The notes under the pieces: generated by a model | Seen by the model: only the letters and a program-made list of their open reading frames with translations | Databases searched by the model: none | What the model was told of the DNA's origin: nothing | Part shown: in pieces, positions 15,585-62,217 of the stretch | Layout of the letters: each line of letters starts with the position of its first letter | Position numbering within the stretch: position 1 is the first letter of the stretch | Program-made: the position numbers and the translations under genes | From: Escherichia phage vB_EcoM_Ozark | DNA length: 64,000 nucleotides | Reading direction: 5' to 3' (one strand) | Sequence record: NC_054927.1

Positions 15585-15588
15585 CAAT

Positions 15589-15606
15589 GGGGACCGAAAG
15601 GTCCCC
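15589..15606. terminator. Hairpin ggggaccgaaaggtcccc after gene 54
   Basis: Perfect palindrome with GAAA loop then T-run. Confidence 0.55.
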
Positions 15607-15612
15607 ATATTT

Positions 15613-15910: not shown

Positions 15911-15964
15911 TCCTCATGTTATGTCAGTAAGACTACTATAACACAACACGAGAGACTTGTAAAC
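15911..15964 (-). promoter_or_regulatory. T4-type early promoter plus leader, 54-nt cassette copy A
   Basis: On minus strand: GTTTAC -35, 18-nt spacer, TGnTATAGT -10, leader ending in GAGGAA RBS; 52/54 identical to 31129-31182. Confidence 0.6.
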
Positions 15965-18021
15965 TACATTTTGAACTTTTTAGACATTCCGTTAATGTTA
16001 ACCAAAGAAGCTAAGATTTGAGAAACTTCGTTTTCCTCTTCTTTTGATTCTTCTACAAGGAATTGATTAAATCCAGTCATTGGACGAACTTCACCAGTTT
16101 CCATTAGATGGTCGCCATCATATACTGATTCCTCTAATTGTTCAGAAGGAGGAACGATTGTACCTTCTATTAGATACTTGTTATAAGCAGTTTCTTTCAT
16201 AAAGTACGTACTTACTTTATTAATCTTCAGTAAAATTCCGCGCGGTAGAATAACTTCAGCTTCTGATGGAAATCCTGATAAATGACCTGGAACGATAACT
16301 TTGATTCGCTCAGCTCCTTTAATTACCATACCCACGCTAGTTTCAGCATCTTCATTAGCATATGTAGAATGACTACCCATATGCATCAAATCTTCTGCAT
16401 CAACGGAACCTTCTCCTTCACCAGAAAATACTGCACCGGAATCATCTAGAGCCATATAGTTTTTACCATGCTCACCGAAGATATTTGGTTTAAGCGATGT
16501 GGATACGAAGTTCTTGAAATAGAACATTTTATTTTCAATGTTATGACGCAAAGTTTTAAAGGTAACTTCTTGTCCACGGTAAAGTGTAGTTCCTGGAGGA
16601 AGAACTGATCCTTTGGCAAAGGCAGAATCCAACGTCTCGATGTGCTTAATAGCTCGTTCCATGTATTCTTCACGGGTAGAATCTGGTTTACCCAAAAGGA
16701 ACGAGTTCATTTCAACATATGAATCTGCACAATAATCTTCAATTACATCAGATTCAGCTTGGGTTAGTCCTTTTGGAGTTACTTCGGTGCTTGCGTATTC
16801 ATATGCCTGAGCAGCAGATTCATTAATCAATTTATAAATGCCATTCATTACAAATTGAATAATAGCTGTCTTTTCATCTGGCGTAGCTTTAGAACCTTTA
16901 ACTAAATCATTAATAATTTTCTTAATAACATCAAAGCTATTAGAAATATTAATGTCAGCAAGATCGCTTAAAATTTTATCAGTTTTATAATCAAAGAATT
17001 CTTTATTCTTTAAATATTCTTGAGAACCTTGATATGTTATATCGCTCTGCAACTTGATGGATGGATCACGTAAACGTGCATGGGCTAATGCAATGTGATT
17101 TCGGAAGTTTTCTAGTTCATAATCGCTAGATTTAAAACGAGAAGCACTCCTCATGCCACCGATAGCTCCTTTGCTGAAGTTTGAACCAATCTGAATAACG
17201 CCAGAGTTCATTGGTCCTTCTGCTTTATATACCGGAACTTTAGATTCAAACTCTTGATATTTCTTAGCAGCGAAGCTATCACCCTGAAGTGAAGCATCAA
17301 CAGTAGAATATTGAGCTTGTGCTGCTAATCGACGACTAATTTTAGTTTTCTGAATAACAGCTTGGTCCGTGCGCTTATCATTTTCTAAAGCAATAGAAGC
17401 AGCAACAGCAACAGCTTTAGGAACAGCATTACCTGTTTTAATGTCTACATAAACATCACCAACCTTCGATTCAACTTTTGTGAATAACTCAGTTGAAATA
17501 GGAGGTACACCTGGAATGTCTTCTAAATTGGCATTTTTACGGTAAACCATAATATATGCATATTTCTTATCATAGTCCCAGATTTCCTTTAAAAGAACAT
17601 ATCGACCTGCTCCTTTAGTACGTACTAAACGGTCAGCAATAACTTGCATTTGACGAGCTGCGCCATTTGTTTTACTTTTTAGTACGCGGAATAGGCATGC
17701 GTCGATTTTATACTGTTTCATTGTTTGAAGAGCAGTATCAAAAACAGCATTAATGACGCCAATTGGATTTCCACCCAAGTTTCTAAGCTTAACCAGTGAT
17801 AATTTCTCGTTGACACCTATCATTACGATATGCATCATTTTATCGCCTGGCTTAACGTTTTTATTTGTATCACCGCCAGAGGTGTATGTACAAAATCTAA
17901 ATCCAGGAAGCACACTTTCTTCACCAGCTTGAATAGCAAAAATTTGTGGTATTTTATGCTTAGGATTTAAGTTAACAACCGGCGCCGAAGCGCCGTCAAA
18001 TAATTCTGTAATAAGTTCCAT
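15964..18021 (-). CDS. Alt-family ADP-ribosyltransferase, paralog 1
   Basis: 685 aa; C-terminal ART motifs YRG, STS, EAEVILPRG; N-terminal about 230 aa nearly collinear with the upstream paralog. Confidence 0.8.
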   Translation of the reverse strand: MELITELFDGASAPVVNLNPKHKIPQIFAIQAGEESVLPGFRFCTYTSGGDTNKNVKPGDKMMHIVMIGVNEKLSLVKLRNLGGNPIGVINAVFDTALQTMKQYKIDACLFRVLKSKTNGAARQMQVIADRLVRTKGAGRYVLLKEIWDYDKKYAYIMVYRKNANLEDIPGVPPISTELFTKVESKVGDVYVDIKTGNAVPKAVAVAASIALENDKRTDQAVIQKTKISRRLAAQAQYSTVDASLQGDSFAAKKYQEFESKVPVYKAEGPMNSGVIQIGSNFSKGAIGGMRSASRFKSSDYELENFRNHIALAHARLRDPSIKLQSDITYQGSQEYLKNKEFFDYKTDKILSDLADINISNSFDVIKKIINDLVKGSKATPDEKTAIIQFVMNGIYKLINESAAQAYEYASTEVTPKGLTQAESDVIEDYCADSYVEMNSFLLGKPDSTREEYMERAIKHIETLDSAFAKGSVLPPGTTLYRGQEVTFKTLRHNIENKMFYFKNFVSTSLKPNIFGEHGKNYMALDDSGAVFSGEGEGSVDAEDLMHMGSHSTYANEDAETSVGMVIKGAERIKVIVPGHLSGFPSEAEVILPRGILLKINKVSTYFMKETAYNKYLIEGTIVPPSEQLEESVYDGDHLMETGEVRPMTGFNQFLVEESKEEENEVSQILASLVNINGMSKKFKM

Positions 18022-18024
18022 GAT

Positions 18025-20118
18025 TTATCCTTGAACGAACTTGTAAGGCATGTTTGTAATATCTATGCAAGACGCAATAATTCCAAGAGATGATTCTACT
18101 TTCTGTTTAACATTTGATGAAACAAATGATGCAAAGTCAACTCTATCTTCTATTTCAATACCACCAGTCATTGCAACTACTTCGCCGGTTTCCATTAAAC
18201 GGTCTCCGTCATAGATTACCGATTCGGTGAGTTCTTCTGTGGTCATAACTTCAGCTTGAATGAGTTTTGTATTATTAGACGTGGTTCCGTCATTATTAGA
18301 AGCATCAGTTATTTTATTAACTTTAACCATCAATCCGCGCGGTAGAATAACTTCAGCTTCTGTTGCTATTCCGAGACTTCCTGGATATACAACATTAACT
18401 TTATGAGCTCCATCAATTGCCCATCCTATTTGAACTTTAACGTATTCAGGATTTTCTTTATACGCTCTTATTTCGTTTGGATTAATAGTTATTCCTTCTT
18501 CATTTTTATCAACCGTTAATTCGTTACGAGCTTCTGGTTCTAAAAGACCAATACCAGCATGTGTAATTCCAAAACGCCCAAAAATGATAGGAGTTAAAGA
18601 AGTAGATACAAAATTTCTGAAATAGAACACTTTATTTTTAACTAGCGCTTCGTATATAGGAGCAGTCATACTTTGAGCACGATAAACTGTAATGCCTTCC
18701 GGTATGCGGTCACCATTTTCAAAAGCTGAATCTAAATTATTTATAGCAGATTCAATTTCTTTTTCACTCATTACATCATATCGTTCTGGATTGTAACGAC
18801 CTAAAAGAAGATTATTGATGTCAGTATATCCTGAACCACAATACTCTCTAATGCCGCGCTTTTGTGATGGAGTATATTTAGAACCATCACGGGCAATAGT
18901 AATATCAATCATTGGACCTGCACCAATTCCAGAAAAACTATAAATCATTCTTTTGAGGAATTTAGTTTTTGCTGCGTTCCAGGAATTTTTAGTCATTTCT
19001 TCCCAGACTTCATCTTGCTGCCCTTTACGAGTTTTATTATGTTTATCAAGCCAATTATCTTTATATTCTTCAAAGAATTTATTAATAGCTGCTGCGTATT
19101 TCTCTAAACATTTTATTGAAGTAGTTGGTTCATTTTTTATCGCGTTAAAAATTACATCTTTAATTTTTTCGGAAACTTCATTAACCTCACTTTTTGAAAA
19201 GAATTTATAGTCATAGTGAAGTTCATTCGCAGTTCCTTCGGCAATAATTTTTGCTGCCTTAGTTTTAGAAGCTAATGAATTAATTCCAAGCTTCATTTCT
19301 TCTGCTTCGGGAATTAAAGGAGCGGTAGCGGGTTTATTGAAATTAGCTGCGGTAGATTCATACTTCTGAAATAATTCACTTTCAAATCTAGAAGATTCCA
19401 ATGACTGACTTTGTGCAATTGCTCTACGGGAAATTTTAACTTTAACGATTACAGCTTGATCAGAACGTTTATCATTTTCTTGCGCAATAGATGCTGCAAT
19501 TGCCTCATTTTTAGTTACTTGAGCTCCAGTATCTTTATTGATATAAACATCACCGACCTTCGATTCAACTTTAGTAAAGAGCTCGGTACTAATTTCCGGA
19601 ACCCCTGGAATGTCTTCTAGTGATACATTTTTGCGATGTATAAGAATATATGCATACTTTTTATCGTAATCCCAGAGTTCCTTAAGAAGGACGTATCTGC
19701 CACCTGAACGACTACGGATAAGTCTATCAGCAATAACCTGAATTTGTCGAGCTTGACCAGCGGTTTTAGACTTAAGAATACGAAGCATACAGGCATCAAT
19801 TTTATACTGACGCATTGTTTGCATTGCAACAGTAAAAACTGAATTGATATAATTAATTGGGCTTGAACCAAGACCTTTCAATTTAGCAATTGAACCTTTA
19901 GCAGTTAATGTAAAAGGAACAATATGCATCATTTTATCGCCCATCTTTAAATCGCGATTAGTATCACCTCCAGATGTATAGGTACATAAACGAAAGCCTG
20001 GTTGTTCAATTGCGTCATCAACATGAACTGAAAAAATTTGTGGTATTTTCTTCTTTGGATTTAAGTTTGTAATCGGAAGAGTAGTATCTTCGTCAAATAA
20101 TTCTGTAATGAGTTCCAT
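18025..20118 (-). CDS. alt: Alt-family ADP-ribosyltransferase, paralog 2 (the copy adjacent to gene 30)
   Basis: 697 aa from second ATG (MELITELF); motifs YRAQ, STS, EAEVILPRG; late promoter upstream. Confidence 0.8.
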   Translation of the reverse strand: MELITELFDEDTTLPITNLNPKKKIPQIFSVHVDDAIEQPGFRLCTYTSGGDTNRDLKMGDKMMHIVPFTLTAKGSIAKLKGLGSSPINYINSVFTVAMQTMRQYKIDACMLRILKSKTAGQARQIQVIADRLIRSRSGGRYVLLKELWDYDKKYAYILIHRKNVSLEDIPGVPEISTELFTKVESKVGDVYINKDTGAQVTKNEAIAASIAQENDKRSDQAVIVKVKISRRAIAQSQSLESSRFESELFQKYESTAANFNKPATAPLIPEAEEMKLGINSLASKTKAAKIIAEGTANELHYDYKFFSKSEVNEVSEKIKDVIFNAIKNEPTTSIKCLEKYAAAINKFFEEYKDNWLDKHNKTRKGQQDEVWEEMTKNSWNAAKTKFLKRMIYSFSGIGAGPMIDITIARDGSKYTPSQKRGIREYCGSGYTDINNLLLGRYNPERYDVMSEKEIESAINNLDSAFENGDRIPEGITVYRAQSMTAPIYEALVKNKVFYFRNFVSTSLTPIIFGRFGITHAGIGLLEPEARNELTVDKNEEGITINPNEIRAYKENPEYVKVQIGWAIDGAHKVNVVYPGSLGIATEAEVILPRGLMVKVNKITDASNNDGTTSNNTKLIQAEVMTTEELTESVIYDGDRLMETGEVVAMTGGIEIEDRVDFASFVSSNVKQKVESSLGIIASCIDITNMPYKFVQG

Positions 20119-20141
20119 CATATCCTCTCTAGTGTTTATTC

Positions 20142-20149
20142 TATTTATA
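20142..20149 (-). promoter_or_regulatory. Late promoter TATAAATA upstream of alt
   Basis: TATAAATA on minus strand about 20 nt before the alt start codons. Confidence 0.55.
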
Positions 20150-20170
20150 AAATTAAAGGCCCGAAGGCCT

Positions 20171-20359
20171 TTAATAATCTATTGGTAAGAGAGTACGATA
20201 TATTTCAAACTTTGGACCTTTTTCATAAGCATCAAAAGTTTCTGTGAATTTATTATAAGCATATGCATCTATAAATTCAATCATGATTTGTGATACAGAA
20301 GTAGAAACATCTCCACCTTCTTTTTGAGCCACGACAATTGTTTCTAAGTAAGCTTTCAT
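20171..20359 (-). CDS. Hypothetical 62-aa protein translationally coupled to DNA ligase
   Basis: ATG overlaps the ligase TGA (ATGA); followed by hairpin aaaggcccgaaggccttt. Confidence 0.5.
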   Translation of the reverse strand: MKAYLETIVVAQKEGGDVSTSVSQIMIEFIDAYAYNKFTETFDAYEKGPKFEIYRTLLPIDY

Positions 20360-21819
20360 AAACCAGTTACCTCATGAAAATCACCAAATACATCCTCGAA
20401 TGTATTAGCTTTAGTTTTATCTTCACGCAAACGAATCGCAATTGGAAGAAATAATTTAACGTAATCAGTGCGGCCATCGGATTTTAACCAACCGTTGCAT
20501 TCGCACTCTAGAATTTTTCCAATATAATAATTTTGGTTTTCCATAATGCGAGTACGGTCAAGTTCATGTGATTTTACGCCGGCTTTATCTTTTAAGCCTG
20601 AACCGGCATTTACCTTAATTTTTCCACACTCTGACTCAAGAATAAATCCACCTGCTTTAGTAGGGTCTTTACGGTGAGGATAAATTCCTACAATTTTTAA
20701 ATCAACATCAATTACTTCTTTAAATTTATAGAGATTTTTTGAACGAGCATTTTCCCATAATCCATCGATATTTTTGAGAATAATACCTTCAAGACCTTGG
20801 TCAATATACTTTTTATAAATTACCTTAGCTTCATCTAGGTTATTTACTACTTGGTTTTCAATTAAAATTACTTTATCATATCCTGATGTCATTTGTTCTA
20901 ATTTAGAAAAACGTACATCATATTTTAAACGAAATGCTGGAAGACCGTATATTTCTACCAACGGAACATAATCCCAGACCTGAAACTTCATGCATTGAGC
21001 TTCTTTTTCTGAAATAGTTCCCTTTAAAGATTTATTAGCGATTCCATTAGAAGTAGTACGTGATTCAGCTACTTCAGCAAACTCTTTAGCTTTACTAATT
21101 TCAGGATAAGCATCAAAAAGAAAATCTAGGCCTTCTGGCTCCTTTTTAACTTGCTCATGGTATACCAATTCGCCATCAATTAACACACCTTCTGGATGAA
21201 TCTGGCGGGCTTCAGCGGTCATTTTGATTAACTCTTCCTTAAGAAGATCTAATCCTAGATATTCATTACCAGCTCGTGATAAAAGACGGACATCATCTAA
21301 TTCATCGCCTCGGACTTCAGCAAAACACCTGGCTCCATCTGCTTTTAACTGTGCAAAGGCTGGAAATTTGATATTCTTACTAATGCCCTTTTCATCATAA
21401 GAACTTGCCAGCATTTGAGGTTGTTCAGGAATTAAACCTGGCCAAACTTTGTTTGCAATAGATACTGAAGCACCGCATTCAAGGTCTCGCATCATCACTC
21501 GACGCAAAACTTCAACATCATCCTTTTTACCATCGGTGATATATCCAGTCAATTCCTCAATTGCAGCATTTCCGGTCAATTTCCGAGTAGCTAACGTGAA
21601 TTCAATGAAGTCAAGCATATCGGTAATGGTCAGCATTCCAAAACTCTGGGTAGCAATACCAGGTTTAGGCCATTTCTTGATATAATACTGTAACCCACGA
21701 GAATAAGTTAGACGATATACTCGTTTAAGCAATTCATTATCTTTATTCTTTTCAAGAATTGCTTGCTTCTGCTTAGTTGATCCAATAGATGCTATTTCAT
21801 TCAGAATTTTAAGAATCAT
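20356..21819 (-). CDS. 30: ATP-dependent DNA ligase gp30
   Basis: 487 aa; adenylation motif KADGAR; matches remembered T4 ligase. Confidence 0.92.
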   Translation of the reverse strand: MILKILNEIASIGSTKQKQAILEKNKDNELLKRVYRLTYSRGLQYYIKKWPKPGIATQSFGMLTITDMLDFIEFTLATRKLTGNAAIEELTGYITDGKKDDVEVLRRVMMRDLECGASVSIANKVWPGLIPEQPQMLASSYDEKGISKNIKFPAFAQLKADGARCFAEVRGDELDDVRLLSRAGNEYLGLDLLKEELIKMTAEARQIHPEGVLIDGELVYHEQVKKEPEGLDFLFDAYPEISKAKEFAEVAESRTTSNGIANKSLKGTISEKEAQCMKFQVWDYVPLVEIYGLPAFRLKYDVRFSKLEQMTSGYDKVILIENQVVNNLDEAKVIYKKYIDQGLEGIILKNIDGLWENARSKNLYKFKEVIDVDLKIVGIYPHRKDPTKAGGFILESECGKIKVNAGSGLKDKAGVKSHELDRTRIMENQNYYIGKILECECNGWLKSDGRTDYVKLFLPIAIRLREDKTKANTFEDVFGDFHEVTGL

Positions 21820-22085
21820 TGTTCATCCTTCAGAGTTTGATTTACAGCTCTATTATAAATCAATTCATCATTAAGCTCAGTCAAAGACCTATGATATGTA
21901 GTTCTAACTTTATTTCCTTGCATCCAGTGCTTGACGTAAATGAAACCTTGCTCTACACATTTTTTAAAAATTCGTTCGTCTTTTTGAGCTCGGAATTCTG
22001 GATTGCATCTAAAAAATTGATTTACGTGACCGTAATCACGTGTAGTATTACCTTCATTTTCATAAATAGTGTGAACGACAAACAT
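21816..22085 (-). CDS. Hypothetical protein (position of T4 30.1)
   Basis: 89-aa ORF with protein-like composition; the antisense ORF is low-complexity. Confidence 0.6.
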   Translation of the reverse strand: MFVVHTIYENEGNTTRDYGHVNQFFRCNPEFRAQKDERIFKKCVEQGFIYVKHWMQGNKVRTTYHRSLTELNDELIYNRAVNQTLKDEQ

Positions 22086-22918
22086 TAGAATGCTCCTTGG
22101 AAAATATTATCACCACTAGTAAATCTATTAAAATACCCTGCATCACCAGGCTTAGTATAGTTCCATGTCTGAAACGGATGTGTCTGATATAGATGATATG
22201 GATTATAAGGATTAAATCCAGGAGTTCTCCAGGTAGTGTTCCAACGAAAAGAATCGTTTTTAACCATCTTCTCAATTACATCTTTTATAGCTTTTTCACT
22301 ATCAAAACTTTCTTTATTTTCCTTCGGTGAAAAAAGCTTATTTTCTACATCATTCCATGTATAAACTCGCTGAGCGGTTTTTGGAATATTGTCACGCTCT
22401 CCTCGCGCCATCCAATAAACAGGAACATTTAATATTTCACTCGCATGATCGCAGTGGTGAGCGAGATCGTCAATATAACAAATTACGTTATATTTCTCTT
22501 TTGCCTTTTTGAACAACTCTTCTTTTGAAGAATCATGACCACACATCATTACTTCTGAGAAGGCACCAGGAAAAAGAGCATTCAAATTAAATTGACGATT
22601 CAACAGAGCGTCAATAGAATCACCCAACGCTGTAACAGCTACAAAATTATAATCTTCTTTTAATTTGTTAATTACGCACAGGGCGTCTTTATATGGAGAC
22701 AAATAACGAATAAAATCTGAACGATTGTATTTTTCAATTAACTTGACGCCAAGTTCTTCATCACAATTAAAGAGTTTACCCGGAGAAATAAATTTCTCAT
22801 CTTGGATCATTTTTAAAATATGTTCTAACGGAAGATTATATTTCTGAGCAAAATAAGGAAGGCCTGATTGCCAGCTTAAACATACTCCATCAATATCAGT
22901 TAAAATAGTAGGCTTCAT
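22085..22918 (-). CDS. HAD-superfamily hydrolase-like protein (position of T4 30.2)
   Basis: 277 aa; N-terminal DxDGV (ILTDIDGV), a threonine motif (FVAVTAL) and a DD motif (CYIDDLAHH) as in HAD phosphatases; aromatic-rich C-terminal tail. Confidence 0.6.
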   Translation of the reverse strand: MKPTILTDIDGVCLSWQSGLPYFAQKYNLPLEHILKMIQDEKFISPGKLFNCDEELGVKLIEKYNRSDFIRYLSPYKDALCVINKLKEDYNFVAVTALGDSIDALLNRQFNLNALFPGAFSEVMMCGHDSSKEELFKKAKEKYNVICYIDDLAHHCDHASEILNVPVYWMARGERDNIPKTAQRVYTWNDVENKLFSPKENKESFDSEKAIKDVIEKMVKNDSFRWNTTWRTPGFNPYNPYHLYQTHPFQTWNYTKPGDAGYFNRFTSGDNIFQGAF

Positions 22919-23373
22919 AGAGAGTCTCTTAATAGATTTAACACATCAATAAATTCAGCTTCGGTTAGTATTGTATCATCTTTTGTTAGACCACTAGCCA
23001 TGCTGTGCTTCAAAACTTTTCCTTTCGAGGCTTGTAATGCATCACGAAAGCCCTTGTTTTGGATCGCTGCTTCAAAATATGCATTTGTGTATAATTCTTT
23101 CCACGCCGGGGAGTATCTTGAAAACGGAACTCCAATCCAGAAGAGGGTCCCACGGTCCTGAGCTCTAGCATAAGACCTTCCAGCTTGTTGGGCGGCAAGC
23201 CCGGATAACCCAAATATACGACGTTGTTGTTCAACATTTTTCACCTTACACCCTTGGAGGAATCCTTCAAGACCTCCAAATTGAATACCATCCATAACGA
23301 AAGGCCATTGGGCGAAATTACTTAATGCGCATGATGGCCATCTAAAATTACTTCTAATCTCTAACTCAGACAT
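22915..23373 (-). CDS. YbiA-like / NADAR (DUF1768)-like protein (position of T4 30.3)
   Basis: Track start is TTG at 23379; ATG at 23373. Motif LSNFAQWPFVMDG...EGF resembles the YbiA-family N-terminal signature as remembered. Confidence 0.5.
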   Translation of the reverse strand: MSELEIRSNFRWPSCALSNFAQWPFVMDGIQFGGLEGFLQGCKVKNVEQQRRIFGLSGLAAQQAGRSYARAQDRGTLFWIGVPFSRYSPAWKELYTNAYFEAAIQNKGFRDALQASKGKVLKHSMASGLTKDDTILTEAEFIDVLNLLRDSL

Positions 23374-23572
23374 TTTCAATGCTTATAATTTCAACATCAG
23401 CCCAATGACCATAGCAAGGAAGACGAAATTCAACTGGCCAGTTAGGGTCCTTTTCTAATATAATAGACTTAACTTGTGGTTCTTCGTGTTCATCAGTATA
23501 CGGATTTTTATCTGTTACTTTATATGTGACCTTAATGTACTGAATTCCAAAAATCTTATTAATTATATTCAT
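23366..23572 (-). CDS. Hypothetical protein
   Basis: 68-aa ORF, ATG start, tightly packed. Confidence 0.5.
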   Translation of the reverse strand: MNIINKIFGIQYIKVTYKVTDKNPYTDEHEEPQVKSIILEKDPNWPVEFRLPCYGHWADVEIISIENV

Positions 23573-23766
23573 ACTAATTCCTTTAATCCGTAGATAGGAG
23601 ATAATTCATCACCCATACGAAGGTCTTCATTTCCATCTACCCAGGAAACAATATAAGCCTCTTTTATTTGAATACCACTCCATTTAAATGGAGGTAGAAC
23701 CTTAGAAATTAATCCAGGTATACCAACTCCCTTTAATTCAACGGTTTGACCTAAAAAGAATTTCAT
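23569..23766 (-). CDS. Hypothetical protein
   Basis: 65-aa ORF, ATG overlapping upstream stop. Confidence 0.5.
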   Translation of the reverse strand: MKFFLGQTVELKGVGIPGLISKVLPPFKWSGIQIKEAYIVSWVDGNEDLRMGDELSPIYGLKELV

Positions 23767-24053
23767 TAAAACCTCATCTGAAAACCATGCGATTTAACGT
23801 TACCACCGCCAATATCAGAAATATTAATTTCACGCGCAATTGAAGGGTCAATGTCAATTTCACGATTGAGTTTAGTGATAGCTAAAGTATCGCGCCCATT
23901 TACAGTACGGAACTCTAAAGGACAAACCACATCAACGTAGTTTTTAATCGATTCACTAGTAGGCTGCAAATGAGCAGGAAGGTCTTTAGGCGCCTTTGAG
24001 AAAACCACTTCACAGAAATTTTTGCGGGTATCAAAATAAGTAGTCATAAACAT
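23766..24053 (-). CDS. Hypothetical protein
   Basis: 95-aa ORF. Confidence 0.55.
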   Translation of the reverse strand: MFMTTYFDTRKNFCEVVFSKAPKDLPAHLQPTSESIKNYVDVVCPLEFRTVNGRDTLAITKLNREIDIDPSIAREINISDIGGGNVKSHGFQMRF

Positions 24054-24095
24054 AATATTTTCCTCAGTAAGGGGCCGAAGCCCCTCATTTTATTT

Positions 24096-24473
24096 TTAAA
24101 TATCAAATTCGTTAAGAACTACATCAAAGATTGCTTCCAAGTGCTCAGGTTTAGCTTTGTTACTCAGAATATGACGAATCCAAGTTTTAACTAAGAGTTT
24201 ACGATTAGCACCATTCCAGCAAGGATGAGTCCCTAAATCGCGTTGGCGGAAATCATCATCCAGAGCGATTTTGAAGTTGGAACCTTTCATCGTGATTGAA
24301 ACCGTGATACCGTTTTCAAATCGCATATAAACGTAGTTAGGAGTCATATACTGTTCAATTTCGCATACTGATCCGTTTTGATGTTTCCAGAGGCAAATAG
24401 TATCAATAGAACCTGCAATACCATTAGAAACATATTTACGTTCAAAGTTGATGTAGTTCATTTTATTCTCCAA
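24096..24473 (-). CDS. Hypothetical protein
   Basis: 125-aa ORF preceded by an early-promoter-like region. Confidence 0.55.
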   Translation of the reverse strand: MENKMNYINFERKYVSNGIAGSIDTICLWKHQNGSVCEIEQYMTPNYVYMRFENGITVSITMKGSNFKIALDDDFRQRDLGTHPCWNGANRKLLVKTWIRHILSNKAKPEHLEAIFDVVLNEFDI

Positions 24474-24528
24474 GATGTTTAATTGCGGTACAGGTATATA
24501 ATATCATATCCTGTACCAAAGTAAACAA

Positions 24529-24861
24529 TTATTTTACTACTTTCCAATGCTGCATGTCAAGTTTACCAACTTTTTTCATCTTCTCAATTAAGCGTTCTGC
24601 ACGTTGGCGAGCTGTAACATAATGCCATTCGCCTAATTCATTTTGTTCAATTTTTCCAACGATTACTGTATTCAATTCATAAATCCAACCAGTAAAGAAA
24701 TTATGAACTTGAATTGTAAAGGTGAAATCTGTTCCCATACCTTCTGTTGTTTCTACTTCAATAATATCACCTTCAACTGCCATTAAGAACCACATAGTTT
24801 CATTATATTTACCATTGAAGCATTTAGTTTTAACTGCAGCGTTCAGATTAATCGTTTTCAT
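24529..24861 (-). CDS. Hypothetical protein
   Basis: 110-aa ORF; GTTTAC-type promoter upstream. Confidence 0.55.
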   Translation of the reverse strand: MKTINLNAAVKTKCFNGKYNETMWFLMAVEGDIIEVETTEGMGTDFTFTIQVHNFFTGWIYELNTVIVGKIEQNELGEWHYVTARQRAERLIEKMKKVGKLDMQHWKVVK

Positions 24862-24971
24862 TTTATTCTCCTTTGTTTGTGTAAGATAATACTATCACAA
24901 AGGAACTATACTGTAAACAACTTTATGCAATCTTTGGAAAATAAAAAAGGACTCCCGAAGGAGTCCTCAAC

Positions 24972-25148
24972 TTATGCTTTCTGCTTACCAAAACGAGAAG
25001 CATCATCTCGAAGAACCGCACGTGCTCGGCGCATGATCTTCTCAACAGTTTGATTGATACGAGAGTTCGACCCACGCTTGTAACCAGCGCGTTTAGAATC
25101 ACCAACTTTCTTTTCAACTGCTTTCTTTGCTTTAACTTGTTTTGCCAT
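24972..25148 (-). CDS. Small highly basic protein (position of T4 30.9)
   Basis: 58 aa from internal ATG (MAKQVKAKKAVEKK...), Lys/Arg-rich; alternative upstream start at 25190. Confidence 0.5.
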   Translation of the reverse strand: MAKQVKAKKAVEKKVGDSKRAGYKRGSNSRINQTVEKIMRRARAVLRDDASRFGKQKA

Positions 25149-25344
25149 TATAAATTCTCTTTTAAATGAAAATGCAGGACTTATTGACATTGCCTGCGCA
25201 AGCCCTCAAGGGGAACATAGGTTTTTGGATATTTAACGACCAGGATAACCATAAACCTCGTCAACATTCAAGAGGTACACCGTAAAACAAAGTTCGACGG
25301 CTCCTCGTTTTAACTTCACACTAAGGCAGTGACTCTCCAATAAA

Positions 25345-25593
25345 TTACTTCAGTGTTACCACAAAGTGACGAACTGCTTTTCGTGCGGCAGAAGCCAGAG
25401 GCTTAGCATATTTAAGTTCATCTTTTTCCTGAAGCTCAGCAGCTAATGCAGTTTGAGCAGGATTCAGATGTTTGAAATAACGCAGGATTTCAAGAGCTTC
25501 GGCTTCAACATCAATAGATGCGCCATAGTTTTCGTGACCATTATTCCATGCGTTTCGTTGCAGTTCAAGAGCGTGTTGTAATTGTTTAATCAT
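25345..25593 (-). CDS. rIII: rIII lysis inhibition accessory protein
   Basis: 82 aa, same length and position as T4 rIII. Confidence 0.8.
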   Translation of the reverse strand: MIKQLQHALELQRNAWNNGHENYGASIDVEAEALEILRYFKHLNPAQTALAAELQEKDELKYAKPLASAARKAVRHFVVTLK

Positions 25594-25719
25594 TTAAAAA
25601 TTCTCGTTAGAGATTAAAACTCGGTAGTCACGTTCTTCTGAATTTCATCTTCTTTCGACAGATCTCTCAGTTGTAGACTACCACATAGAATTGAAACTCA
25701 ATTCATATTATTATTTATA

Positions 25720-26055
25720 TCACTTATAAAGACACGGAATAGCTTTATAGTGACAGGTAACAAATTTTTGTTTAATTTCTTTTGGCTGCTTAAGACCTAG
25801 AGCTACAAAAGGATGCGGAACGTTTCGAATTTGACCAACTGGAAGAGAAGTCAAATCACCAACTTCGCAGAAACCTTCAGGAACATCAGGACCGACAGAG
25901 TGAACTACACACAGTTCAGGAACTTCACCTTGGACACGTTTACCAATAATAAGTCCTGATTCTGTAACTTCTTCATCACCGGCTTGCGCAGGTTCAGAAA
26001 CTAAAATAACATATTCACCGACAGCACGAATTGGTAGCTGTTGTACTTCAGACAT
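25720..26055 (-). CDS. 31: Co-chaperonin gp31 (GroES analogue)
   Basis: 111 aa; matches remembered T4 gp31. Confidence 0.9.
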
Positions 26056-26111
26056 CGTTTTTCCTTTTTGTTAACAGATGAATTAATAATAACAAATAAT
26101 TCTTAAAGCAT

Positions 26112-26420
26112 TTATTTACCAATAAATTGAAGCAAATGCTCAACTTTCATGCCATTAACGGAAATCAATTTGTCAATAGAAAAACCTCGCCATGCACCGA
26201 GTTCAACATCAAATATCGGAATCATATCAGTAGATTCTTTCCGAGTAGATTCAGTCAATTTACCGGTTTGCATAGTTGGCATAAAGTCAGCATCACGGGT
26301 GCCTTTCATAGTACGAATAGTACCATCAGACTTTTCAAAAACCACGTTTGAAATACCCATGGACAATTTAGTTTTCAAAATTTCACGAATTGCTACTTTC
26401 TGTTCAGTTGTCAGTTTCAT
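26112..26420 (-). CDS. Hypothetical protein (position of T4 31.1)
   Basis: 102-aa ORF. Confidence 0.55.
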   Translation of the reverse strand: MKLTTEQKVAIREILKTKLSMGISNVVFEKSDGTIRTMKGTRDADFMPTMQTGKLTESTRKESTDMIPIFDVELGAWRGFSIDKLISVNGMKVEHLLQFIGK

Positions 26421-26657
26421 TTATTTACCTATTACAGTTTTAATATGAGTTGTTCCACGTTCTTTAAGAGTGGAAAGCAACTTTTGGCATTTTTCTAAAT
26501 CAGATTTCCAACTATACGGTCTATCAATACAAACCCATTCTGACTTATAATACTGTTTCCATTTAGAGAAAAAATATTTCTTATACTCTACAGCAAATGA
26601 AATGTTCTCGTTAGAATAAGAACTAATTGCTGTGAGCTGTACCAAACGAAATTTCAT
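26421..26657 (-). CDS. Hypothetical protein (position of T4 31.2)
   Basis: 78-aa ORF. Confidence 0.5.
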   Translation of the reverse strand: MKFRLVQLTAISSYSNENISFAVEYKKYFFSKWKQYYKSEWVCIDRPYSWKSDLEKCQKLLSTLKERGTTHIKTVIGK

Positions 26658-27238
26658 TATTCACCACAGAATTCGTTGATATTTTCCCAATTTAACTTAT
26701 TCAAGTTTTTCTTAGGAACATTAAACACTTCAATACCTGCATTTCGCAGAATATCATCCCAGCCAGGTTTATTTTTATCGTATGTTTCGCAATAAACCAG
26801 TTTTTTAATTCCAGATTGAGCTATGGCTTTTGCACAATCCGGACAAGGAGAAAGTGTTACATACATAGTAGCACCTTCAATTGAAGAACCGTTTCGTGCA
26901 GCAAACAAAATCGCATTTAGTTCAGCATGAATTTCATTTTTAGACGACCATTCAGAGTGAGCATTACGATGTTCTTTCGCCAAGACAAAACGATCAGTTG
27001 AACCAAATGATACACATTCAGGCTTATGACCTTGAATGATAGTATGTTTAGGTTTATTCAACAACCAACCTTGCTCGGCAGCATAATCGCAGCAATTCAC
27101 ACCACCTGCCGGAGAACCGTTATATCCGGTAGAAATAATACGTCCATTCTTTTCAATTACTGCTCCTACCTTCCAGGAGCAACATTTTGATTCTTGTGAT
27201 ACTAAATATGCAATTTGAAGTACTGTACTCGCTTTCAT
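26657..27238 (-). CDS. cd: dCMP deaminase
   Basis: 193 aa; zinc-binding deaminase motifs HAELNA and PCPDCAKAI. Confidence 0.9.
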   Translation of the reverse strand: MKASTVLQIAYLVSQESKCCSWKVGAVIEKNGRIISTGYNGSPAGGVNCCDYAAEQGWLLNKPKHTIIQGHKPECVSFGSTDRFVLAKEHRNAHSEWSSKNEIHAELNAILFAARNGSSIEGATMYVTLSPCPDCAKAIAQSGIKKLVYCETYDKNKPGWDDILRNAGIEVFNVPKKNLNKLNWENINEFCGE

Positions 27239-27573
27239 TTCATAATCACCAGATAAGCAGATTTAGCAGTTTCAACACGATAAATTTCGTGACGAAGTTT
27301 AGTTATACTTTTAATAACAGAACTAATTATATTCTGCCCATCTTTAAAGCGGTTTTTCTTATCAATAAAAATTGCACCAGCCATCTTTTTGTGAAGCTCA
27401 ACTGGATATTTCGTCACAATAATAGCATCATACACAGAAGGATGAATACTATTCACTAGAGTATCATTCATTAAAGTTATTCTAATGAACTGTGCTGTTT
27501 CAGAATCAAGCGCTCTATGATCGCCAGTATCATTTTCAAGACAATTATCAATTATATCAGTTAAATTCATCAT
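27235..27573 (-). CDS. Hypothetical protein (cd.1 position)
   Basis: 112-aa ORF. Confidence 0.5.
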   Translation of the reverse strand: MMNLTDIIDNCLENDTGDHRALDSETAQFIRITLMNDTLVNSIHPSVYDAIIVTKYPVELHKKMAGAIFIDKKNRFKDGQNIISSVIKSITKLRHEIYRVETAKSAYLVIMK

Positions 27574-27806
27574 AGTACGCCATACGCCCTTTGTGCTTCA
27601 ACTAATCCATCAAAATCCAGTTTAAGATGTGTTATTTGGTCACCATCACCTGGATTCACAATTACTAATACTGAACGAGGAGTTTCGGTAATAACACGAA
27701 CCGATGTTTCAGGAAATCGTTCAGAAACCTTATTTACCAATTCCTGCGCAAATAGTTTAACTTTTTCTTGGAATTCTTTAACAGTAATTGGTTTTTCACT
27801 TAGCAT
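27570..27806 (-). CDS. Hypothetical protein (cd.2 position)
   Basis: 78-aa ORF; early promoter upstream. Confidence 0.5.
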   Translation of the reverse strand: MLSEKPITVKEFQEKVKLFAQELVNKVSERFPETSVRVITETPRSVLVIVNPGDGDQITHLKLDFDGLVEAQRAYGVL

Positions 27807-27868
27807 TTTGTTTTCCTCATTTGTTTTGGTAGAGCTATAATATCACAACTCTACCATAAAGTAAACTG

Positions 27869-28150
27869 TTAAATTGCCTTGAATTCTGATGTCTGTGATT
27901 CAAAACGAATATCGCCTTTGATGACTAGCTCAGCATCAAGACCAAATACGACAATGATATGCGCGGAACCCGGATACAGCGTAATTGCAATAGAATCCAC
28001 CTGGTCTGGAAGCAAAGTGTTCAATACATGAGTCACTTGAGCATGAATTCGAAGCTCGGCTGCGTTATCAAGCTTTTCAAACATATTATTAGCGATAATT
28101 TGACTAAACACTACTTCTACGATTTTAGAATAAGTCGGAAACATATTCAC
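27869..28150 (-). CDS. Hypothetical protein (cd.3 position)
   Basis: 93-aa ORF. Confidence 0.5.
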   Translation of the reverse strand: MNMFPTYSKIVEVVFSQIIANNMFEKLDNAAELRIHAQVTHVLNTLLPDQVDSIAITLYPGSAHIIVVFGLDAELVIKGDIRFESQTSEFKAI

Positions 28151-28339
28151 CTCACATAATTTTCTTCAAGCCAATTAATAACATCCAACGCATTATCAAA
28201 AGTTGAACCATCTACTATGTCTTCTGTTTCATAATCAAGAATATCTAAGTCTACTCTTCCATCAACAATAGGCCATAAACAAAATAGATATTTCTTTTCT
28301 TTTTCAATTTTATCACAAAGTCGATAAATCTTTTCTATG

Positions 28340-28347
<8 letters not shown>
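28147..28347 (-). CDS. Hypothetical protein (cd.4 position)
   Basis: 66-aa ORF. Confidence 0.5.
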
Positions 28348-29753
<1,406 letters not shown>

Positions 29754-29756
29754 TTA

Positions 29757-29987
29757 TTATTTCTCAACCAATGATTGAATATAATCATGCAAGTCTTTAG
29801 ATGCTTTACCCCACTTATTTTGGTATTCATTTTTAAGATTAGCCCGAGATTGAGCTAATAAAACATCATTAGTTGGAGGTAAAGATTCTAACCGTTGAAT
29901 CTGGCGTCCATAAATCATTGCAGCCATCTCGGATTCATAAATCAATCCTTTGAGATGTTCAAATTGATGCCATGAAATCATTTGCAT
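29757..29987 (-). CDS. Hypothetical protein
   Basis: 76-aa ORF. Confidence 0.5.
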   Translation of the reverse strand: MQMISWHQFEHLKGLIYESEMAAMIYGRQIQRLESLPPTNDVLLAQSRANLKNEYQNKWGKASKDLHDYIQSLVEK

Positions 29988-30277
29988 TTATCCTCTTTTA
30001 ACTCTTGACGATAATAACATATCATAGTTTTCTGATCATGTACATATCGTTTTACATCATTAAGCCAAATGCGAAATTCCTGGGAATCTTCAAATGGCAT
30101 ACCGACCCAAGCTTTACCATCAATAACTTTAACTTGCCAAGATAGTTTAGCTTCATCATATGACTTTATTTGTACAGGCCAATTAGGATGAACTGTTTCT
30201 TTCTTTACTTCTAGAGGCTTTGTCGAACAACCAACTAGAAGACCAATAGATAATATTACTGCTGATAGTTTAATCAT
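29978..30277 (-). CDS. Outer-membrane lipoprotein, o-spanin candidate (T4 pseT.2 equivalent)
   Basis: Signal peptide with lipobox LLVGC; 99 aa; overlaps the downstream i-spanin candidate. Confidence 0.6.
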   Translation of the reverse strand: MIKLSAVILSIGLLVGCSTKPLEVKKETVHPNWPVQIKSYDEAKLSWQVKVIDGKAWVGMPFEDSQEFRIWLNDVKRYVHDQKTMICYYRQELKEDKCK

Positions 30278-30627
30278 TTAGAAAGGTCCTGGATGTCTTC
30301 TGCGAACTTGTTGAAGGAGTTGTTGATTTGTTTTTCAACCAATCCTGGCTTATGAGCCACCACATCCGCCTTCTTTGCGTCTTTGCGCAGTTTTTCATTT
30401 TCACGCTCAATAGCAGCAATTGCCTCACGATTTTTATTATTCATCGCATCAATATAATTATACTGAATTCGCAAATTATTTAATGCTAAAGCGTTTTCAT
30501 TGGCCGTTTTTGTAATTTCTACAACAGACGTTTCTAATCTTTCAATTTTATTTTTTAAAATTAAAGAAGTTCCGCCCAATGCAATTACAATTAATAGCAA
30601 GCCTGCTGTCGTATTACTTAATTGCAT
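30274..30627 (-). CDS. i-spanin candidate (T4 pseT.3 equivalent)
   Basis: N-terminal transmembrane helix followed by predicted coiled coil; 117 aa. Confidence 0.6.
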   Translation of the reverse strand: MQLSNTTAGLLLIVIALGGTSLILKNKIERLETSVVEITKTANENALALNNLRIQYNYIDAMNNKNREAIAAIERENEKLRKDAKKADVVAHKPGLVEKQINNSFNKFAEDIQDLSK

Positions 30628-31121
30628 AAAGTTTTAATAACCTCTATAATATCGTCTTGAGAAAGACCGTTAATTAAAATATGATGTTCAGCCGGAGATT
30701 TAGAAATTTTAAAGCATGCCTCAACATCTTCTGCCATATCTGATGCGCTACGATTTGGATTACTAATTCCAAGACGATGTTTTCCCGTCAAAGGATTAAC
30801 GATGATATAGCATTTACAGTTGTTAATATGAACATTAGGTTGAGTCTGATTAATGAACACATCACAATCATATTTCGCAAGCTGATTTTCTAAAAAGACT
30901 TTCATCTCCTCAACTGCATCAGGAAGCATATCACGGGCTTGCTCAAGACGACGATTTCGATATTCTTTAATGGTCGTTTTCCGCTTGACTTGCTTAGCTA
31001 AATCTTTCTTAAGATCGGTGATATATCCAACTCGACGATTTCCTTTAAATACAGAAATCCCATCTGTAGTATCACCGTATGCTTCAACGACCATTTCAGT
31101 AGTAATAAGCTGTAAATCCAT
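30618..31121 (-). CDS. alc: Alc, inhibitor of host transcription on cytosine DNA
   Basis: 167 aa from second ATG; position between the spanin genes and rnlA. Confidence 0.7.
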   Translation of the reverse strand: MDLQLITTEMVVEAYGDTTDGISVFKGNRRVGYITDLKKDLAKQVKRKTTIKEYRNRRLEQARDMLPDAVEEMKVFLENQLAKYDCDVFINQTQPNVHINNCKCYIIVNPLTGKHRLGISNPNRSASDMAEDVEACFKISKSPAEHHILINGLSQDDIIEVIKTLCN

Positions 31122-31128
31122 CATAAAG

Positions 31129-31182
31129 TCCTCATGTTATGTCAGTAAGACTACTGTAACACAACACGAGGGACTTGTAAAC
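31129..31182 (-). promoter_or_regulatory. T4-type early promoter plus leader, 54-nt cassette copy B
   Basis: GTTTAC -35, spacer, TACAGT -10, GAGGA RBS; 52/54 identical to copy A at 15911-15964. Confidence 0.6.
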
Positions 31183-31185
31183 AGC

Positions 31186-32773
<1,588 letters not shown>

Positions 32774-42076: not shown

Positions 42077-42119
42077 ATTATTTTCCTCTTTAATCATCAG
42101 CAGTATTGCCGATAGTTGT

Positions 42120-42149
42120 ATAGTACCATGGAAGGACAAGGATGTAAAC
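42120..42149 (-). promoter_or_regulatory. T4-type early promoter (family shared with motA and ndd-region promoters)
   Basis: Minus strand GTTTAC, 18-nt spacer, TACTAT; conserved flanks gatagttgtatagtacca and gttttgtgaaa. Confidence 0.55.
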
Positions 42150-42223
42150 TGTTTTGTGAAAAAAATTTTTGAAATAAAAAAAGGGGACCTCTAGGGTCCC
42201 CAATTAATTAATAATATAATCTA

Positions 42224-45497: not shown

Positions 45498-48400
45498 ATG
45501 GCCGAGATTAAAAGAAAGTTCAGAGCAGAAGATGGTCTGGACGCAGGTGGTGATAAAATAATCAACGTAGCTTTAGCTGATCGTACCGTAGGAACTGACG
45601 GTGTTAACGTTGATTACTTAATTCAAGAAAACACAGTTCAACAATATGATCCAACTCGTGGATATTTAAAAGATTTTGTAATCATTTATGATAACCGCTT
45701 TTGGGCTGCTATAAATGATATTCCAAAACCGGCAGGAGCTTTTAATAGCGGGCGCTGGAGAGCATTACGTACAGACGCAAACTGGATTACGGTTTCATCT
45801 GGTTCATATCAATTAAAATCCGGTGAAGCTATTTCGGTTAATACTGCAACTGGAAATGACATCACGTTTACTTTACCATCTTCTCCAATTGATGGAGATA
45901 CTATCGTTCTCCAAGATATTGGAGGAAAACCTGGAGTTAACCAAGTTTTAATTGTAGCTCCAGTACAAAGTATTGTAAACTTTAGAGGTGAACAAGTACG
46001 TTCAGTACTAATGACTCATCCAAAGTCACAGCTAGTTTTAATTTTTAGTAATCGTCTGTGGCAAATGTATGTAGCTGATTATAGTAGAGAAGCTGTAGTT
46101 GTAACACCAGCGAATACTTATCAAGCGCAATCTAATGATTTTATCGTGCGTAGATTTACTTCTGCTGCACCAATTAATGTCAAACTTCCAAGATTTGCTA
46201 ATCATGGCGATATTATTAATTTCGTTGATTTAGATAAACTGAATCCACTTTATCATACAATTGTTACTACATACGATGAAACGACTTCAGTACAAGAAGT
46301 TGGAACTCATTCCATTGAAGGCCGTACATCGATTGACGGTTTCTTGATGTTCGATGATAATGAGAAATTGTGGAGATTGTTTGACGGTGACAGTAAAGCA
46401 CGTTTACGCATTATAACGACTAATTCTAATATTCGTCCAAATGAAGAAGTCATGGTGTTTGGAGCGAATAACGGAACAACTCAAACAATTGAGCTTCAGC
46501 TTCCTACTGATATTTCTGTTGGTGATACTGTTAAAATTTCCATGAATTACATGAGAAAAGGACAAACAGTTAAAATCAAGGCTGCGGGCGAAGATAAAAT
46601 TGCTTCTTCAGTTCAATTACTGCAATTCCCAAAACGCTCAGAATATCCGCCTGAAGCTGAGTGGGTTACAGTCCAAGAATTAGTTTTTAATGGTGAAACT
46701 AATTATGTTCCGGTTTTACAACTTGCTTATATAGAAGATTCTGATGGAAAATACTGGGTTGTACAGCAAAACGTTCCAACTGTAGAAAGAGTTGATTCTT
46801 TAAATGATTCTACTAGAGCAAGATTAGGCGTAATTGCTTTAGCTACACAAGCTCAAGCTAACGTCGATTTAGAAAATTCTCCTCAAAAAGAATTAGCAAT
46901 TACTCCAGAAACGTTAGCTAATCGTACTGCTACAGAAACTCGTAGAGGTATTGCAAGAATAGCAACTACTGCTCAAGTGAATCAGAACACCACATTCTCT
47001 TTTGCTGATGATATTATCATCACTCCTAAAAAGCTGAATGAAAGAACTGCTACAGAAACTCGCAGAGGTGTCGCAGAAATTGCTACACAGCAGGAAACTA
47101 ATACAGGTACTGATGATACTACAATCATTACTCCTAAAAAGCTTCAAGCTCGCCAAGGTTCTGAGTCATTATCTGGTATTGTAACTTTTGTATCTACTGC
47201 AGGTGCTACTCCAGCTTCTAGCCGTGAATTAAATGGTACGAATGTTTATAATAAAAACACTAATAATTTAGTTGTTTCACCTAAAGCTTTGGATCAGTAT
47301 AAAGCTACTCCAACGCAGCAAGGTGCAGTAATTTTAGCAGTTGAAAGTGAAGTAATTGCTGGACAAAGTCAGGAAGGATGGGCAAATGCTGTTGTAACAC
47401 CAGAAACGTTACATAAAAAGACATCAACTGATGACAGAATTGGTTTAATTGAAATTGCTACGCAAAGTGAAGTTAATACAGGAACTGATTATACTCGTGC
47501 AGTCACTCCTAAAACTTTAAATGACCGTAGAGCAACTGAAAGTTTAAGTGGTATAGCTGAAATTGCTACACAAGTTGAATTCGACGCAGGCGTCGACGAT
47601 ACTCGTATCTCTACACCATTAAAAATTAAAACCAGATTTAATAGTACTGATCGTACTTCTGTTGTTGCTCTATCTGGATTAGTTGAATCAGGAACTCTCT
47701 GGGACCATTATACCCTTAATATTCTTGAAGCAAATGAGACACAGCGTGGTACACTTCGTGTAGCTACACAGGTTGAAGCTGCTGCAGGAACATTAGATAA
47801 TGTTTTAATAACTCCTAAAAAGCTTTTAGGTACTAAATCTACCGAATCGCAAGAAGGTGTTATTAAAGTTGCAACTCAGTCTGAAACTGTGACTGGAACG
47901 TCAGCAAATACTGCTGTATCTCCAAAAAATTTAAAATGGATTGTGCAGAGTGAACCTACTTGGGCAGCTACTACTGCGATAAGAGGTTTTGTTAAAACTT
48001 CATCTGGTTCAATTACATTCGTTGGTAATGATACAGTCGGTTCTACCCAAGATTTAGAACTGTATGAGAAAAATAGCTATGCGGTATCACCATATGAATT
48101 AAACCGTGTATTAGCAAATTATTTGCCATTAAAAGCAAAAGCTGTAGATAGTAATTTATTGGATGGTCTAGATTCATCTCAGTTCATTCGTAGGGACATT
48201 GCGCAGACAGTTAATGGTTCACTAACCTTAACCCAACAAACGAATCTGAGTGCCCCTCTTGTATCATCTAGTACTGCTGCGTTTGGTGGTTCAGTTTCGG
48301 CAAATAGTACATTAACTATTTCTAATACTGGAACGGCAACTCGTCTGATTTTTGAGAAAGGACCTCAAACTGGAACTAACCCAGCGCAGACGATGACTAT

Positions 48401-54200: not shown

Positions 54201-54503
54201 GTAGGTGCAAACGCCAACGCTAAATTCACTGGAACCGTGAACGGTGCTACTGCAGGGTCGAATATAGCCAAAACTTCTTCAGACGGTGCTCATACTCATA
54301 CTTGGTCTGGTACTACAAGCACTACAGGTAACCATGCTCACACAGTAGGTATTGGTGCTCATACCCATACTGTAGGTATCGGTGCTCATACCCACACGGT
54401 AGCAATTGGCTCGCATGGTCATACTATCACTGTAAATAGTACAGGTAATACAGAAAACACGGTTAAAAACATTGCTTTTAACTATATCGTTCGTTTAGCA
54501 TAA
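51228..54503 (+). CDS. 37: Long tail fibre distal subunit gp37 (receptor-binding tip)
   Basis: 1091 aa; C-terminal cluster of eight HxH motifs and short tandem repeats. Confidence 0.9.
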
Positions 54504-58487: not shown

Positions 58488-58528
58488 TTTCTAATCTCCG
58501 TAATTCTGTATCAGTAGTTGATAGTTGT

Positions 58529-62132: not shown

Positions 62133-62217
62133 TTTATTCTCCAAATCCGTATCAGTAGTTGATAGTTGTATAGTACCACGGTCCTTGTGGTATGTAAACT
62201 GTTTTGTGAAATTTTTT

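Follow-up and report, generated by a model that had tools for sequence, protein, structure and literature searches.

PeSL cassettes are intergenic elements in which an early promoter is combined with a stem-loop, and one of their five subclasses carries the stem over the -10 element (Arbiol et al. 2010, PMC2839356). For T4 and PST the PeSL consensus is TTTACW-N17-TAYWAT, with a stem-loop located just upstream of the promoter and read as a terminator (Comeau et al. 2014, PMC4122927). T4 early promoters are of the UP/-35/TGn/-10 type (Hinton review, PMC2988021). In the T4 genes e, soc, 49 and I-TevI the Shine-Dalgarno (SD) sequence is sequestered in long transcripts, and an internal late promoter gives a translatable RNA (PMC3014915). 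Here we describe a 54-nt early-promoter cassette that resembles each of these in part. It stands twice in a 64,000-nt stretch (the window) of the genome of Escherichia phage vB_EcoM_Ozark (NC_054927.1), ahead of the genes alt.-3 (copy A) and alc (copy B).

The cassette runs from the -35 of an early promoter to the SD of the downstream gene, and its promoter spacer is complementary to the SD region. We propose that it is an early promoter plus leader that would gate translation of alc and alt.-3 to their own early transcript, and that it is native to alc and was copied to alt.-3. From sequence comparison and predicted folds, we put the probability of this reading at roughly 0.6. The cassette sequence has been public in the T4 genome for decades, and the feature is largely ordinary and of known kinds.

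Copies A and B (Table 1) are identical at 52 of 54 positions without gaps, and differ at cassette positions 12 (C/T) and 27 (T/C). Both lie on the minus strand, where they read GTTTACAAGTC(T/C)CTCGTGTTGTGTTA(T/C)AGTAGTCTTACTGACATAACATGAGGA, and the repeat finder grouped them into a single direct-repeat family, 15,218 nt apart from start to start. Identity extends from the G of GTTTAC to the last A of GAGGA, and the flanks on either side are unrelated. A sequence-only reading of the window had reported the pair, and its coordinates, 52/54 identity, direct orientation and ~15 kb spacing were all reproduced. The search for all copies that it had recommended gave A and B only, with no third cassette in the 64-kb window at ≤3 mismatches. 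Matches of that quality were absent from 100 dinucleotide shuffles.

The same reading had conceded that the identity might simply be the early-promoter consensus. This was checked against 11 minus-strand sites of the window where GTTTAC has a -10-like hexamer at the proper distance and where an SD with start codon is also present. Pairwise identity over 54 nt among these cassettes was 26.3 ± 6.9, and the next-best pair reached 44/54. Since A and B share 52/54, their identity does not reflect promoter consensus alone, and chance or shared consensus as its source is excluded by the shuffles and this comparison. The repeat is real, non-random and conserved. The next most similar group (44/54) is a family of three ~80-nt early-promoter cassettes (42093-42172, 58502-58581 and 62143-62222, minus strand), 65-80% identical, with a common upstream A/T tract, GTTTAC, TACTAT and the leader ACAACTATC.

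The window belongs to Tequatrovirus, with ~97-98% identity to many T4-like coliphages over 19 kb. T4 itself carries the cassette pair, at alt.-2/alt.-3 and rnlA/alc, with 53/54 identity between its two copies. A blastn search with the 54-mer found 995 places in 498 phage records, all at ≥94% identity; 497 records have two places, one has a single place and none has three. Matching numbers of records carry Tequatrovirus-level Alc (495 at ≥95%) and Alt.-3 (497 at ≥90%). Together, these counts show that the pair is a fixed feature of the genus and not peculiar to this genome. Cassette positions and flanking genes were identical in every genome inspected. A pattern scan of IMG/VR for further copies yielded 8 loci from 4 genomes, too few for statistics.

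Between the copies lie two alt paralogs, alt.1, 30 (ligase), 30.1-30.9, rIII, 31, cd, pseT and alc, assigned by homology to annotated relatives; this gene content agrees with the earlier description of an alt-ligase-cd-pseT block bracketed by the repeats. The block had also been thought open to deletion or duplication by recombination between the copies. Genes 30 (DNA ligase) and 31 (co-chaperonin) are essential in T4, so deletion by an A/B crossover would not be viable. The terminal redundancy of T4 amounts to a few percent, far below a 15-kb duplication. No genome shows the block lost or doubled. Given this, the essential genes and the two-place state of all but one record, the evidence does not support deletion or duplication of the block in evolution, whereas exchange without crossover is plausible.

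Predicted pairing of the promoter spacer with the Shine-Dalgarno sequence

Both promoters fit TTTACW-N17-TAYWAT except for a G at -10 position 5, and the consensus scan found an extended -10 (TG before the second hexamer) at each copy. Along with GAGGA, the scan confirmed the T4 early-promoter anatomy and the downstream gene's ribosome-binding site that the sequence-only reading had assigned to each copy. The alt.-3 ATG lies 7 nt downstream of GAGGA, and the alc start of the T4 annotation, the second ATG (31121), lies 7 nt after it as well. No promoter features are annotated at either site in the T4 GenBank and RefSeq records, a literature search for T4 start-site maps gave nothing usable, and the late-promoter motif TATAAATA is absent from both cassettes. 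By the rule of thumb of ~7 nt after the -10, transcription would start at about cassette position 37 (Table 1).

The cassette RNA is predicted to fold into an 18-bp hairpin at positions 12-53 (-22 kcal/mol, z -5.4 against shuffles). Its 5' arm, CCUCGUGUUGUGUU..AGUA, lies in the promoter spacer and -10 (positions 25-30), its loop GUCU follows the -10 at positions 32-35, and its 3' arm, UACUGACAUAACAUGAGG, ends in the SD. The SD bases GAGG fall within the 3' arm at copy A (15912-15915; -20.5 kcal/mol, z -4.1) and at copy B (31130-31133; -25.7 kcal/mol, z -5.3). In folds of upstream-initiated RNA, three to four of the four SD bases pair with the spacer (z -3.7 to -5.4). RNA from position 37 on, which is the 5' end of the 3' arm, lacks the 5' arm and is predicted to be unstructured (0 to -1.4 kcal/mol, z about 0). 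Because the predicted start lies just past the loop, the hairpin would form only in read-through RNA; the predicted transcript of the cassette promoter would be free of its 5' arm. The sequence-only reading had noted a short leader with an imperfect stem-loop. That description understated the structure: the predicted fold is an 18-bp hairpin from spacer to SD, which would be absent from the leader of the cassette's own transcript. Rfam has no family at either cassette. Elsewhere, at 24933-25016 (minus strand), a match to Atu_C8, a Rhizobiales small RNA, stays below threshold (31 bits; gathering score 50); it overlaps a terminator hairpin and is most likely due to chance. Operator readings for RegB (GGAG) and RegA were considered and set aside; the SD of the cassette reads GAGGA rather than GGAG, and nothing resembling an AU-rich RegA operator is apparent.

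We propose that each copy would act as one unit, in which a strong sigma-70 early promoter is fused to a leader and has a spacer complementary to the SD region. Transcripts coming in from the upstream genes (late alt RNA at A, rnlA RNA at B) would hold both arms and form the 18-bp hairpin, burying GAGG and leaving alt.-3 and alc poorly translated from read-through RNA. RNA from the cassette's own promoter would lack the 5' arm and keep the ribosome site free, and Alc and Alt.-3 would be made only while early promoters fire. Read-through RNA is to be expected because no terminator is predicted between alt and copy A or between rnlA and copy B, a late-promoter motif lies 20 nt upstream of alt, and alt is a late gene in T4 (PMC9697503). 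In T4 omics data, alt.-3 and alc are classed as early RNA and early protein, and rnlA as early RNA and late protein (PMC9697503 supplements). These classes fit separate early expression of alt.-3 and alc, without proving a translational gate.

The hairpin could instead be a transcription terminator or attenuator that insulates each early gene from upstream transcription. A PeSL stem-loop strongly lowers expression of a downstream lacZ (Arbiol et al. 2010, PMC2839356), and the record of phage SA20RB (OL960581.1, 2-51) carries a WebGeSTer annotation that labels the copy A hairpin a rho-independent terminator. However, the stem is not followed by a U-run at copy A (ACACAAAAUG) or at copy B (CUUUAUGAUG), and the terminator scan that found canonical terminators nearby did not report this hairpin. 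In addition, all of seven genera have the SD at the end of the 3' arm, and a terminator would have no need of it there. We consider this alternative distinctly improbable.

Placement of the pairing was compared across the early cassettes of the window. The spacer-to-SD design is found in 4 of the 11, namely A, B and two more at 24859-24918 and 61623-61683 (minus strand). In the latter two the spacer is complementary to their own SD, with stems of 9 bp and 15 bp (-12 and -23 kcal/mol); the first serves a 30.8 homolog and the second a 37-aa membrane-like open reading frame (ORF). As the same design recurs at these two further promoters, the predicted folds mark it as a recurring T4 device. The GTTTAC promoters at 24526, 27866 and 41156 (minus strand) carry perfect 7-8-bp inverted repeats around the -10 (for example GGTACAGG...CCTGTACC) that stop short of the SD, a different stem-loop placement within the same promoter class.

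Variation within the genus was assessed in 30 cassette copies from 17 genomes, 12 of which contributed both copies. Stem changes that keep pairing are C12U, C15U, G16A (six copies) and G40A; those that break it are G16U, G18A, G40U and G29A, the last of which makes the -10 a perfect TATAAT. One genome has a compensatory change of C15-G50 to U-A, and two others show the U.G intermediate. This variation mildly favours the hairpin structure.

Outgroup cassettes and the origin of copy A

Regions upstream of alc were fetched from nine other genera or lineages, and regions upstream of alt.-3 from eight outgroup genomes. A GTTTAC-type promoter occurs at both positions in almost all of them. In six of the nine outgroups, the spacer stretch that directly follows GTTTACA upstream of alc is complementary to the SD region, with differing arm sequences (Table 1). 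Per-sequence folds with shuffles gave z -3.3 to -6.6 for these six hairpins, and in each the spacer pairs with all four SD bases.

A plain MAFFT alignment of the alc cassettes left the arms out of register and gave a weak RNAalifold consensus, and was replaced by the per-sequence folds and a covariance-model-fitted alignment. In the latter, 74.6% of cells in eight hairpin cassettes were paired, against 65.9 ± 3.0% in shuffles. The covariation score was 0.361 against 0.207 in shuffles (0/500 reached it) and 0.09-0.23 in slid controls, and four of nine hairpin pairs change on both sides. A model-fitted alignment leans toward structure, so the independent folds weigh more. These results point to a hairpin design that is ancestral upstream of alc across T4-like genera.

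Upstream of alt.-3, the spacer-to-SD hairpin is present in 0/8 outgroup genomes (z -1.6 to +0.9). The cassettes there have only a small hairpin inside the spacer (-7 to -11 kcal/mol, z about 0). An ungapped scan of ±20 kb around the outgroup alc cassettes gave no near-identical second copy, the best match agreeing at 30-41 of 54-56 positions. As the design occurs upstream of alc in 6/9 outgroups and upstream of alt.-3 in none of eight, the simplest reading is that copy B is ancestral at alc and copy A is a Tequatrovirus-specific copy. The shared ends GTTTACA and CATGAGGA are also found in outgroup alt.-3 cassettes. In the Tequatrovirus ancestor, the alc unit may have been copied over the resident alt.-3 promoter, probably via these short end homologies. 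Both copies would since have been kept by purifying selection and occasional gene conversion.

It could be argued that A and B are alike as passive leftovers of a recent duplication, with a functionless hairpin and too little time to diverge. A and B differ by 0-4%, like Tequatrovirus genomes at large (about 3-4%), and several stem-breaking substitutions are tolerated. Against this stand the hairpins of the same geometry and different sequence upstream of alc in six outgroup genera, the compensatory double change with its intermediate within the genus, and repeat ends that coincide exactly with functional bounds (-35 and SD). We regard a passive relic as very improbable indeed.

Exchange between the loci has some support from shared variants. 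Five of the seven variant types at copy B are also found at copy A in some genome. PP01 carries the identical two derived bases (G29A, G32A) in both copies, and one further phage (GBLB0003; PV654517.1) has G16A and T27C in both, its copy A also bearing the compensatory C15U/G50A pair. A permutation test of within-genome variant sharing was not significant (P = 0.10). Occasional non-crossover gene conversion between A and B is plausible from these patterns.

A stronger version would make the copies mainly PeSL-type recombination substrates, whose exchange shuffles, deletes or duplicates the 15-kb module and whose identity is kept for recombination. Direct orientation and 52-54/54 identity agree with this, as does a length close to the ~50 bp given as the T4 recombination requirement (Singer et al. 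1982, as cited in PMC2839356). In RB49 and phi1, circles joined from one PeSL to another have been demonstrated (PMC2839356). The probable ectopic origin of copy A and the variants common to both copies also speak for it. However, the variant sharing falls short of significance, and none of the 498 records has three places. Positions and flanking genes are constant in the inspected genomes, and the genes flanked are conserved ones rather than variable ORFans. Some genes of the block are essential, and its duplication would exceed the terminal redundancy. Hairpin conservation at alc in single-copy genera would also be left unexplained, and on balance this version appears unlikely. What stands of the earlier proposal that such cassettes are recombination substrates is the probable ectopic copying behind copy A and the polymorphisms shared by both loci; what does not is the loss or gain of the block.

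Several observations weigh against translational gating by an alc-derived cassette. Spacer-to-SD pairing at alc is absent in three of nine outgroups (Mosigvirus, Providencia phage PSTCR6 and Gaprivervirus), so the design is dispensable. In Gaprivervirus, the cassette upstream of an extra partial alc copy hides the SD with a 5' arm downstream of the -10 and not in the spacer. The T4 cassette has an identity of 0.57-0.74 to all outgroup cassettes and is not assignable to the alc or the alt.-3 type; as identity is uninformative, only architecture speaks for the direction from B to A. Within Tequatrovirus, stem substitutions are weakly biased to pair-keeping (5 kept types vs 4 breaking types), and the sense-strand preference of the hairpin, based on G.U pairs, is seen in this genus alone. 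The start site at each copy is a rule-of-thumb prediction and the translational effect is itself predicted, and the WebGeSTer label in SA20RB favours a terminator.

Two outgroup lineages have further peculiarities around alc. VR7 and PSD2001 are the Gaprivervirus phages with the extra partial alc copy upstream of alc. The alc gene of Mosigvirus PhAPEC2 is annotated from a start that overlaps rnlA and takes in the promoter, and is probably over-extended. The alc cassette of this phage has an alt.-3-type spacer, which may mean replacement in the opposite direction.

Neighbouring genes and other features of the window

At copy A, the downstream alt paralog ends in a TAG stop that overlaps with the G of GTTTAC. 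The gene that follows, alt.-3, is non-essential in T4 and has no known function; C-terminal extension mutants escape CmdTAC defence (PMC11618068). Coordinates of the cassettes, their parts and their neighbours are collected in Table 1, together with the arms of the outgroup alc hairpins.

Table 1. Cassette copies, predicted elements, neighbouring genes and outgroup alc hairpin arms.
Feature	Position	Strand	Details and basis
Copy A of 54-nt cassette (-35 to SD)	15911-15964	-	between stop of downstream alt paralog and alt.-3
Copy A promoter	15935-15963	-	TTTACA (15958-15963), 17-nt spacer, TG-extended -10 TATAGT (15935-15940); 10/12 match
Copy A predicted transcription start	near 15928		
Copy A predicted hairpin	15912-15953	-	5' arm 15940-15953 + 15934-15937, loop 15930-15933, 3' arm 15912-15929
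Copy B of 54-nt cassette	31129-31182	-	between rnlA stop (5 nt upstream) and alc
Copy B promoter	31153-31181	-	TTTACA, 17-nt spacer, TG-extended -10 TACAGT (31153-31158); 9/12 match
Copy B predicted transcription start	near 31146		
Copy B predicted hairpin	31130-31171	-	register as in A, extended by AAGUCC/GGACUU to about 31126-31176
alt.-3 homolog, 96 aa	15613-15903	-	gene after copy A; phrog_1739, homology to annotated relatives
alc (inhibitor of host transcription)	30618-31124	-	gene after copy B; phrog_1253
Bidirectional terminator hairpin	15587-15608	.	after alt.-3; nearest terminator predicted downstream of copy A
Two tandem alt paralogs	15964-18021, 18025-20121	-	upstream of copy A; homology
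Late-promoter motif TATAAATA	20142-20149		20 nt upstream of alt; motif scan
rnlA ORF (RNA ligase 1)	31186-32346	-	upstream of copy B; homology
Karamvirus alc hairpin			5' arm UCUCCAUUUGGUU / 3' arm AACCAAAUGGAGA
Gelderlandvirus alc hairpin			5' arm UCUCCGUUUAGUU / 3' arm AACCAAACGGAGA
Klebsiella phage alc hairpin			5' arm UCCUCAUCAG / 3' arm CUGAUGAGGA
Dhakavirus alc hairpin			5' arm UCUCCUCAU / 3' arm AUGAGGAGA
Winklervirus alc hairpin			5' arm UCCUCAUUUCGUUGUG / 3' arm CACUAACGAAAUGAGGA
Bragavirus alc hairpin			5' arm ACCUCUCAUUUUU / 3' arm AAAAUGAGAGGUU

Other repeats were found in coding sequence. The tandem full-length alt (ADP-ribosyltransferase) paralogs carry several 64-158-nt repeat families ~2,094-2,103 nt apart; the second alt copy is reduced to the fragments alt.-1 and alt.-2 in T4, and the outgroup genera inspected have a single alt. 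A fibre-like coding region (46899-47824, plus strand) holds several 33-68-nt repeat families, and three in-frame 27-nt tandem repeats (HAHTVGIGA-like, His-x-His) lie at 54333-54413 (plus strand).

Comparison with known systems

A wider statement, which we offer tentatively, is that the cassette is a portable 'early-only' module, conserved at alc since the T4-like genera diverged, transplanted to alt.-3 and kept alike by conversion over 15 kb. If so, T4 would have an early counterpart that mirrors its well-known hairpin gates of late genes, and many PeSL stem-loops may serve to gate translation and not to terminate transcription. This offers a testable reading of early-cassette stem-loops, in terms of which transcripts get translated rather than where transcription stops. 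The pair would also be a clean example, in a model phage, of one locus receiving the promoter of a distant one, promoter and leader having moved as a unit between micro-homologies at the -35 and SD. Of the shuffling that has been proposed for such cassettes, the origin of copy A would represent the viable form, without crossover. How T4 biology is understood does not change; what is added is the spacer-to-SD hairpin, its deep conservation at alc, and a probable transplant as the origin of copy A.

Like PeSLs, copies A and B form a unit from the upstream stop to the downstream SD/ATG, with a strong sigma-70-type promoter, a stem overlapping the -10, repetition and probable ectopic exchange. Both fall within the broad definition of the class (Arbiol 2010). 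They do not fit the PST/T4 type, in which the stem lies upstream of the promoter; here the upstream stop abuts the -35, and the only strong stem runs from spacer to SD. That stem lacks a U-tract, whereas the PST/T4 stem-loops are described as terminators upstream of the promoter. PeSLs are associated with variable ORFans and hyperplastic regions, where they mark junctions of indels or replacements. In contrast, A and B flank conserved genes at fixed sites in ~500 genomes, 15 kb apart across essential genes, and hold two fixed positions with conserved neighbours, in two copies in all but one of 498 records. Copy A itself, however, probably took the place of an older alt.-3 promoter.

As ordinary T4 early promoters do, the cassettes have a GTTTAC -35, a 17-nt spacer counted from TTTACA, TGn, a -10 hexamer, A/T-rich upstream sequence and early-class genes. 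Ordinary early promoters of the window agree with one another at about half of 54 positions, whereas A and B agree at 96%, spacer and leader included. The likeness to e, soc, 49 and I-TevI lies in an SD held in a helix of upstream-initiated RNA and an internal promoter whose transcript lacks the 5' arm. The internal promoter is late in those genes and early in A and B, so the predicted logic, known here from folds, would be reversed, with translation from the early transcript only.

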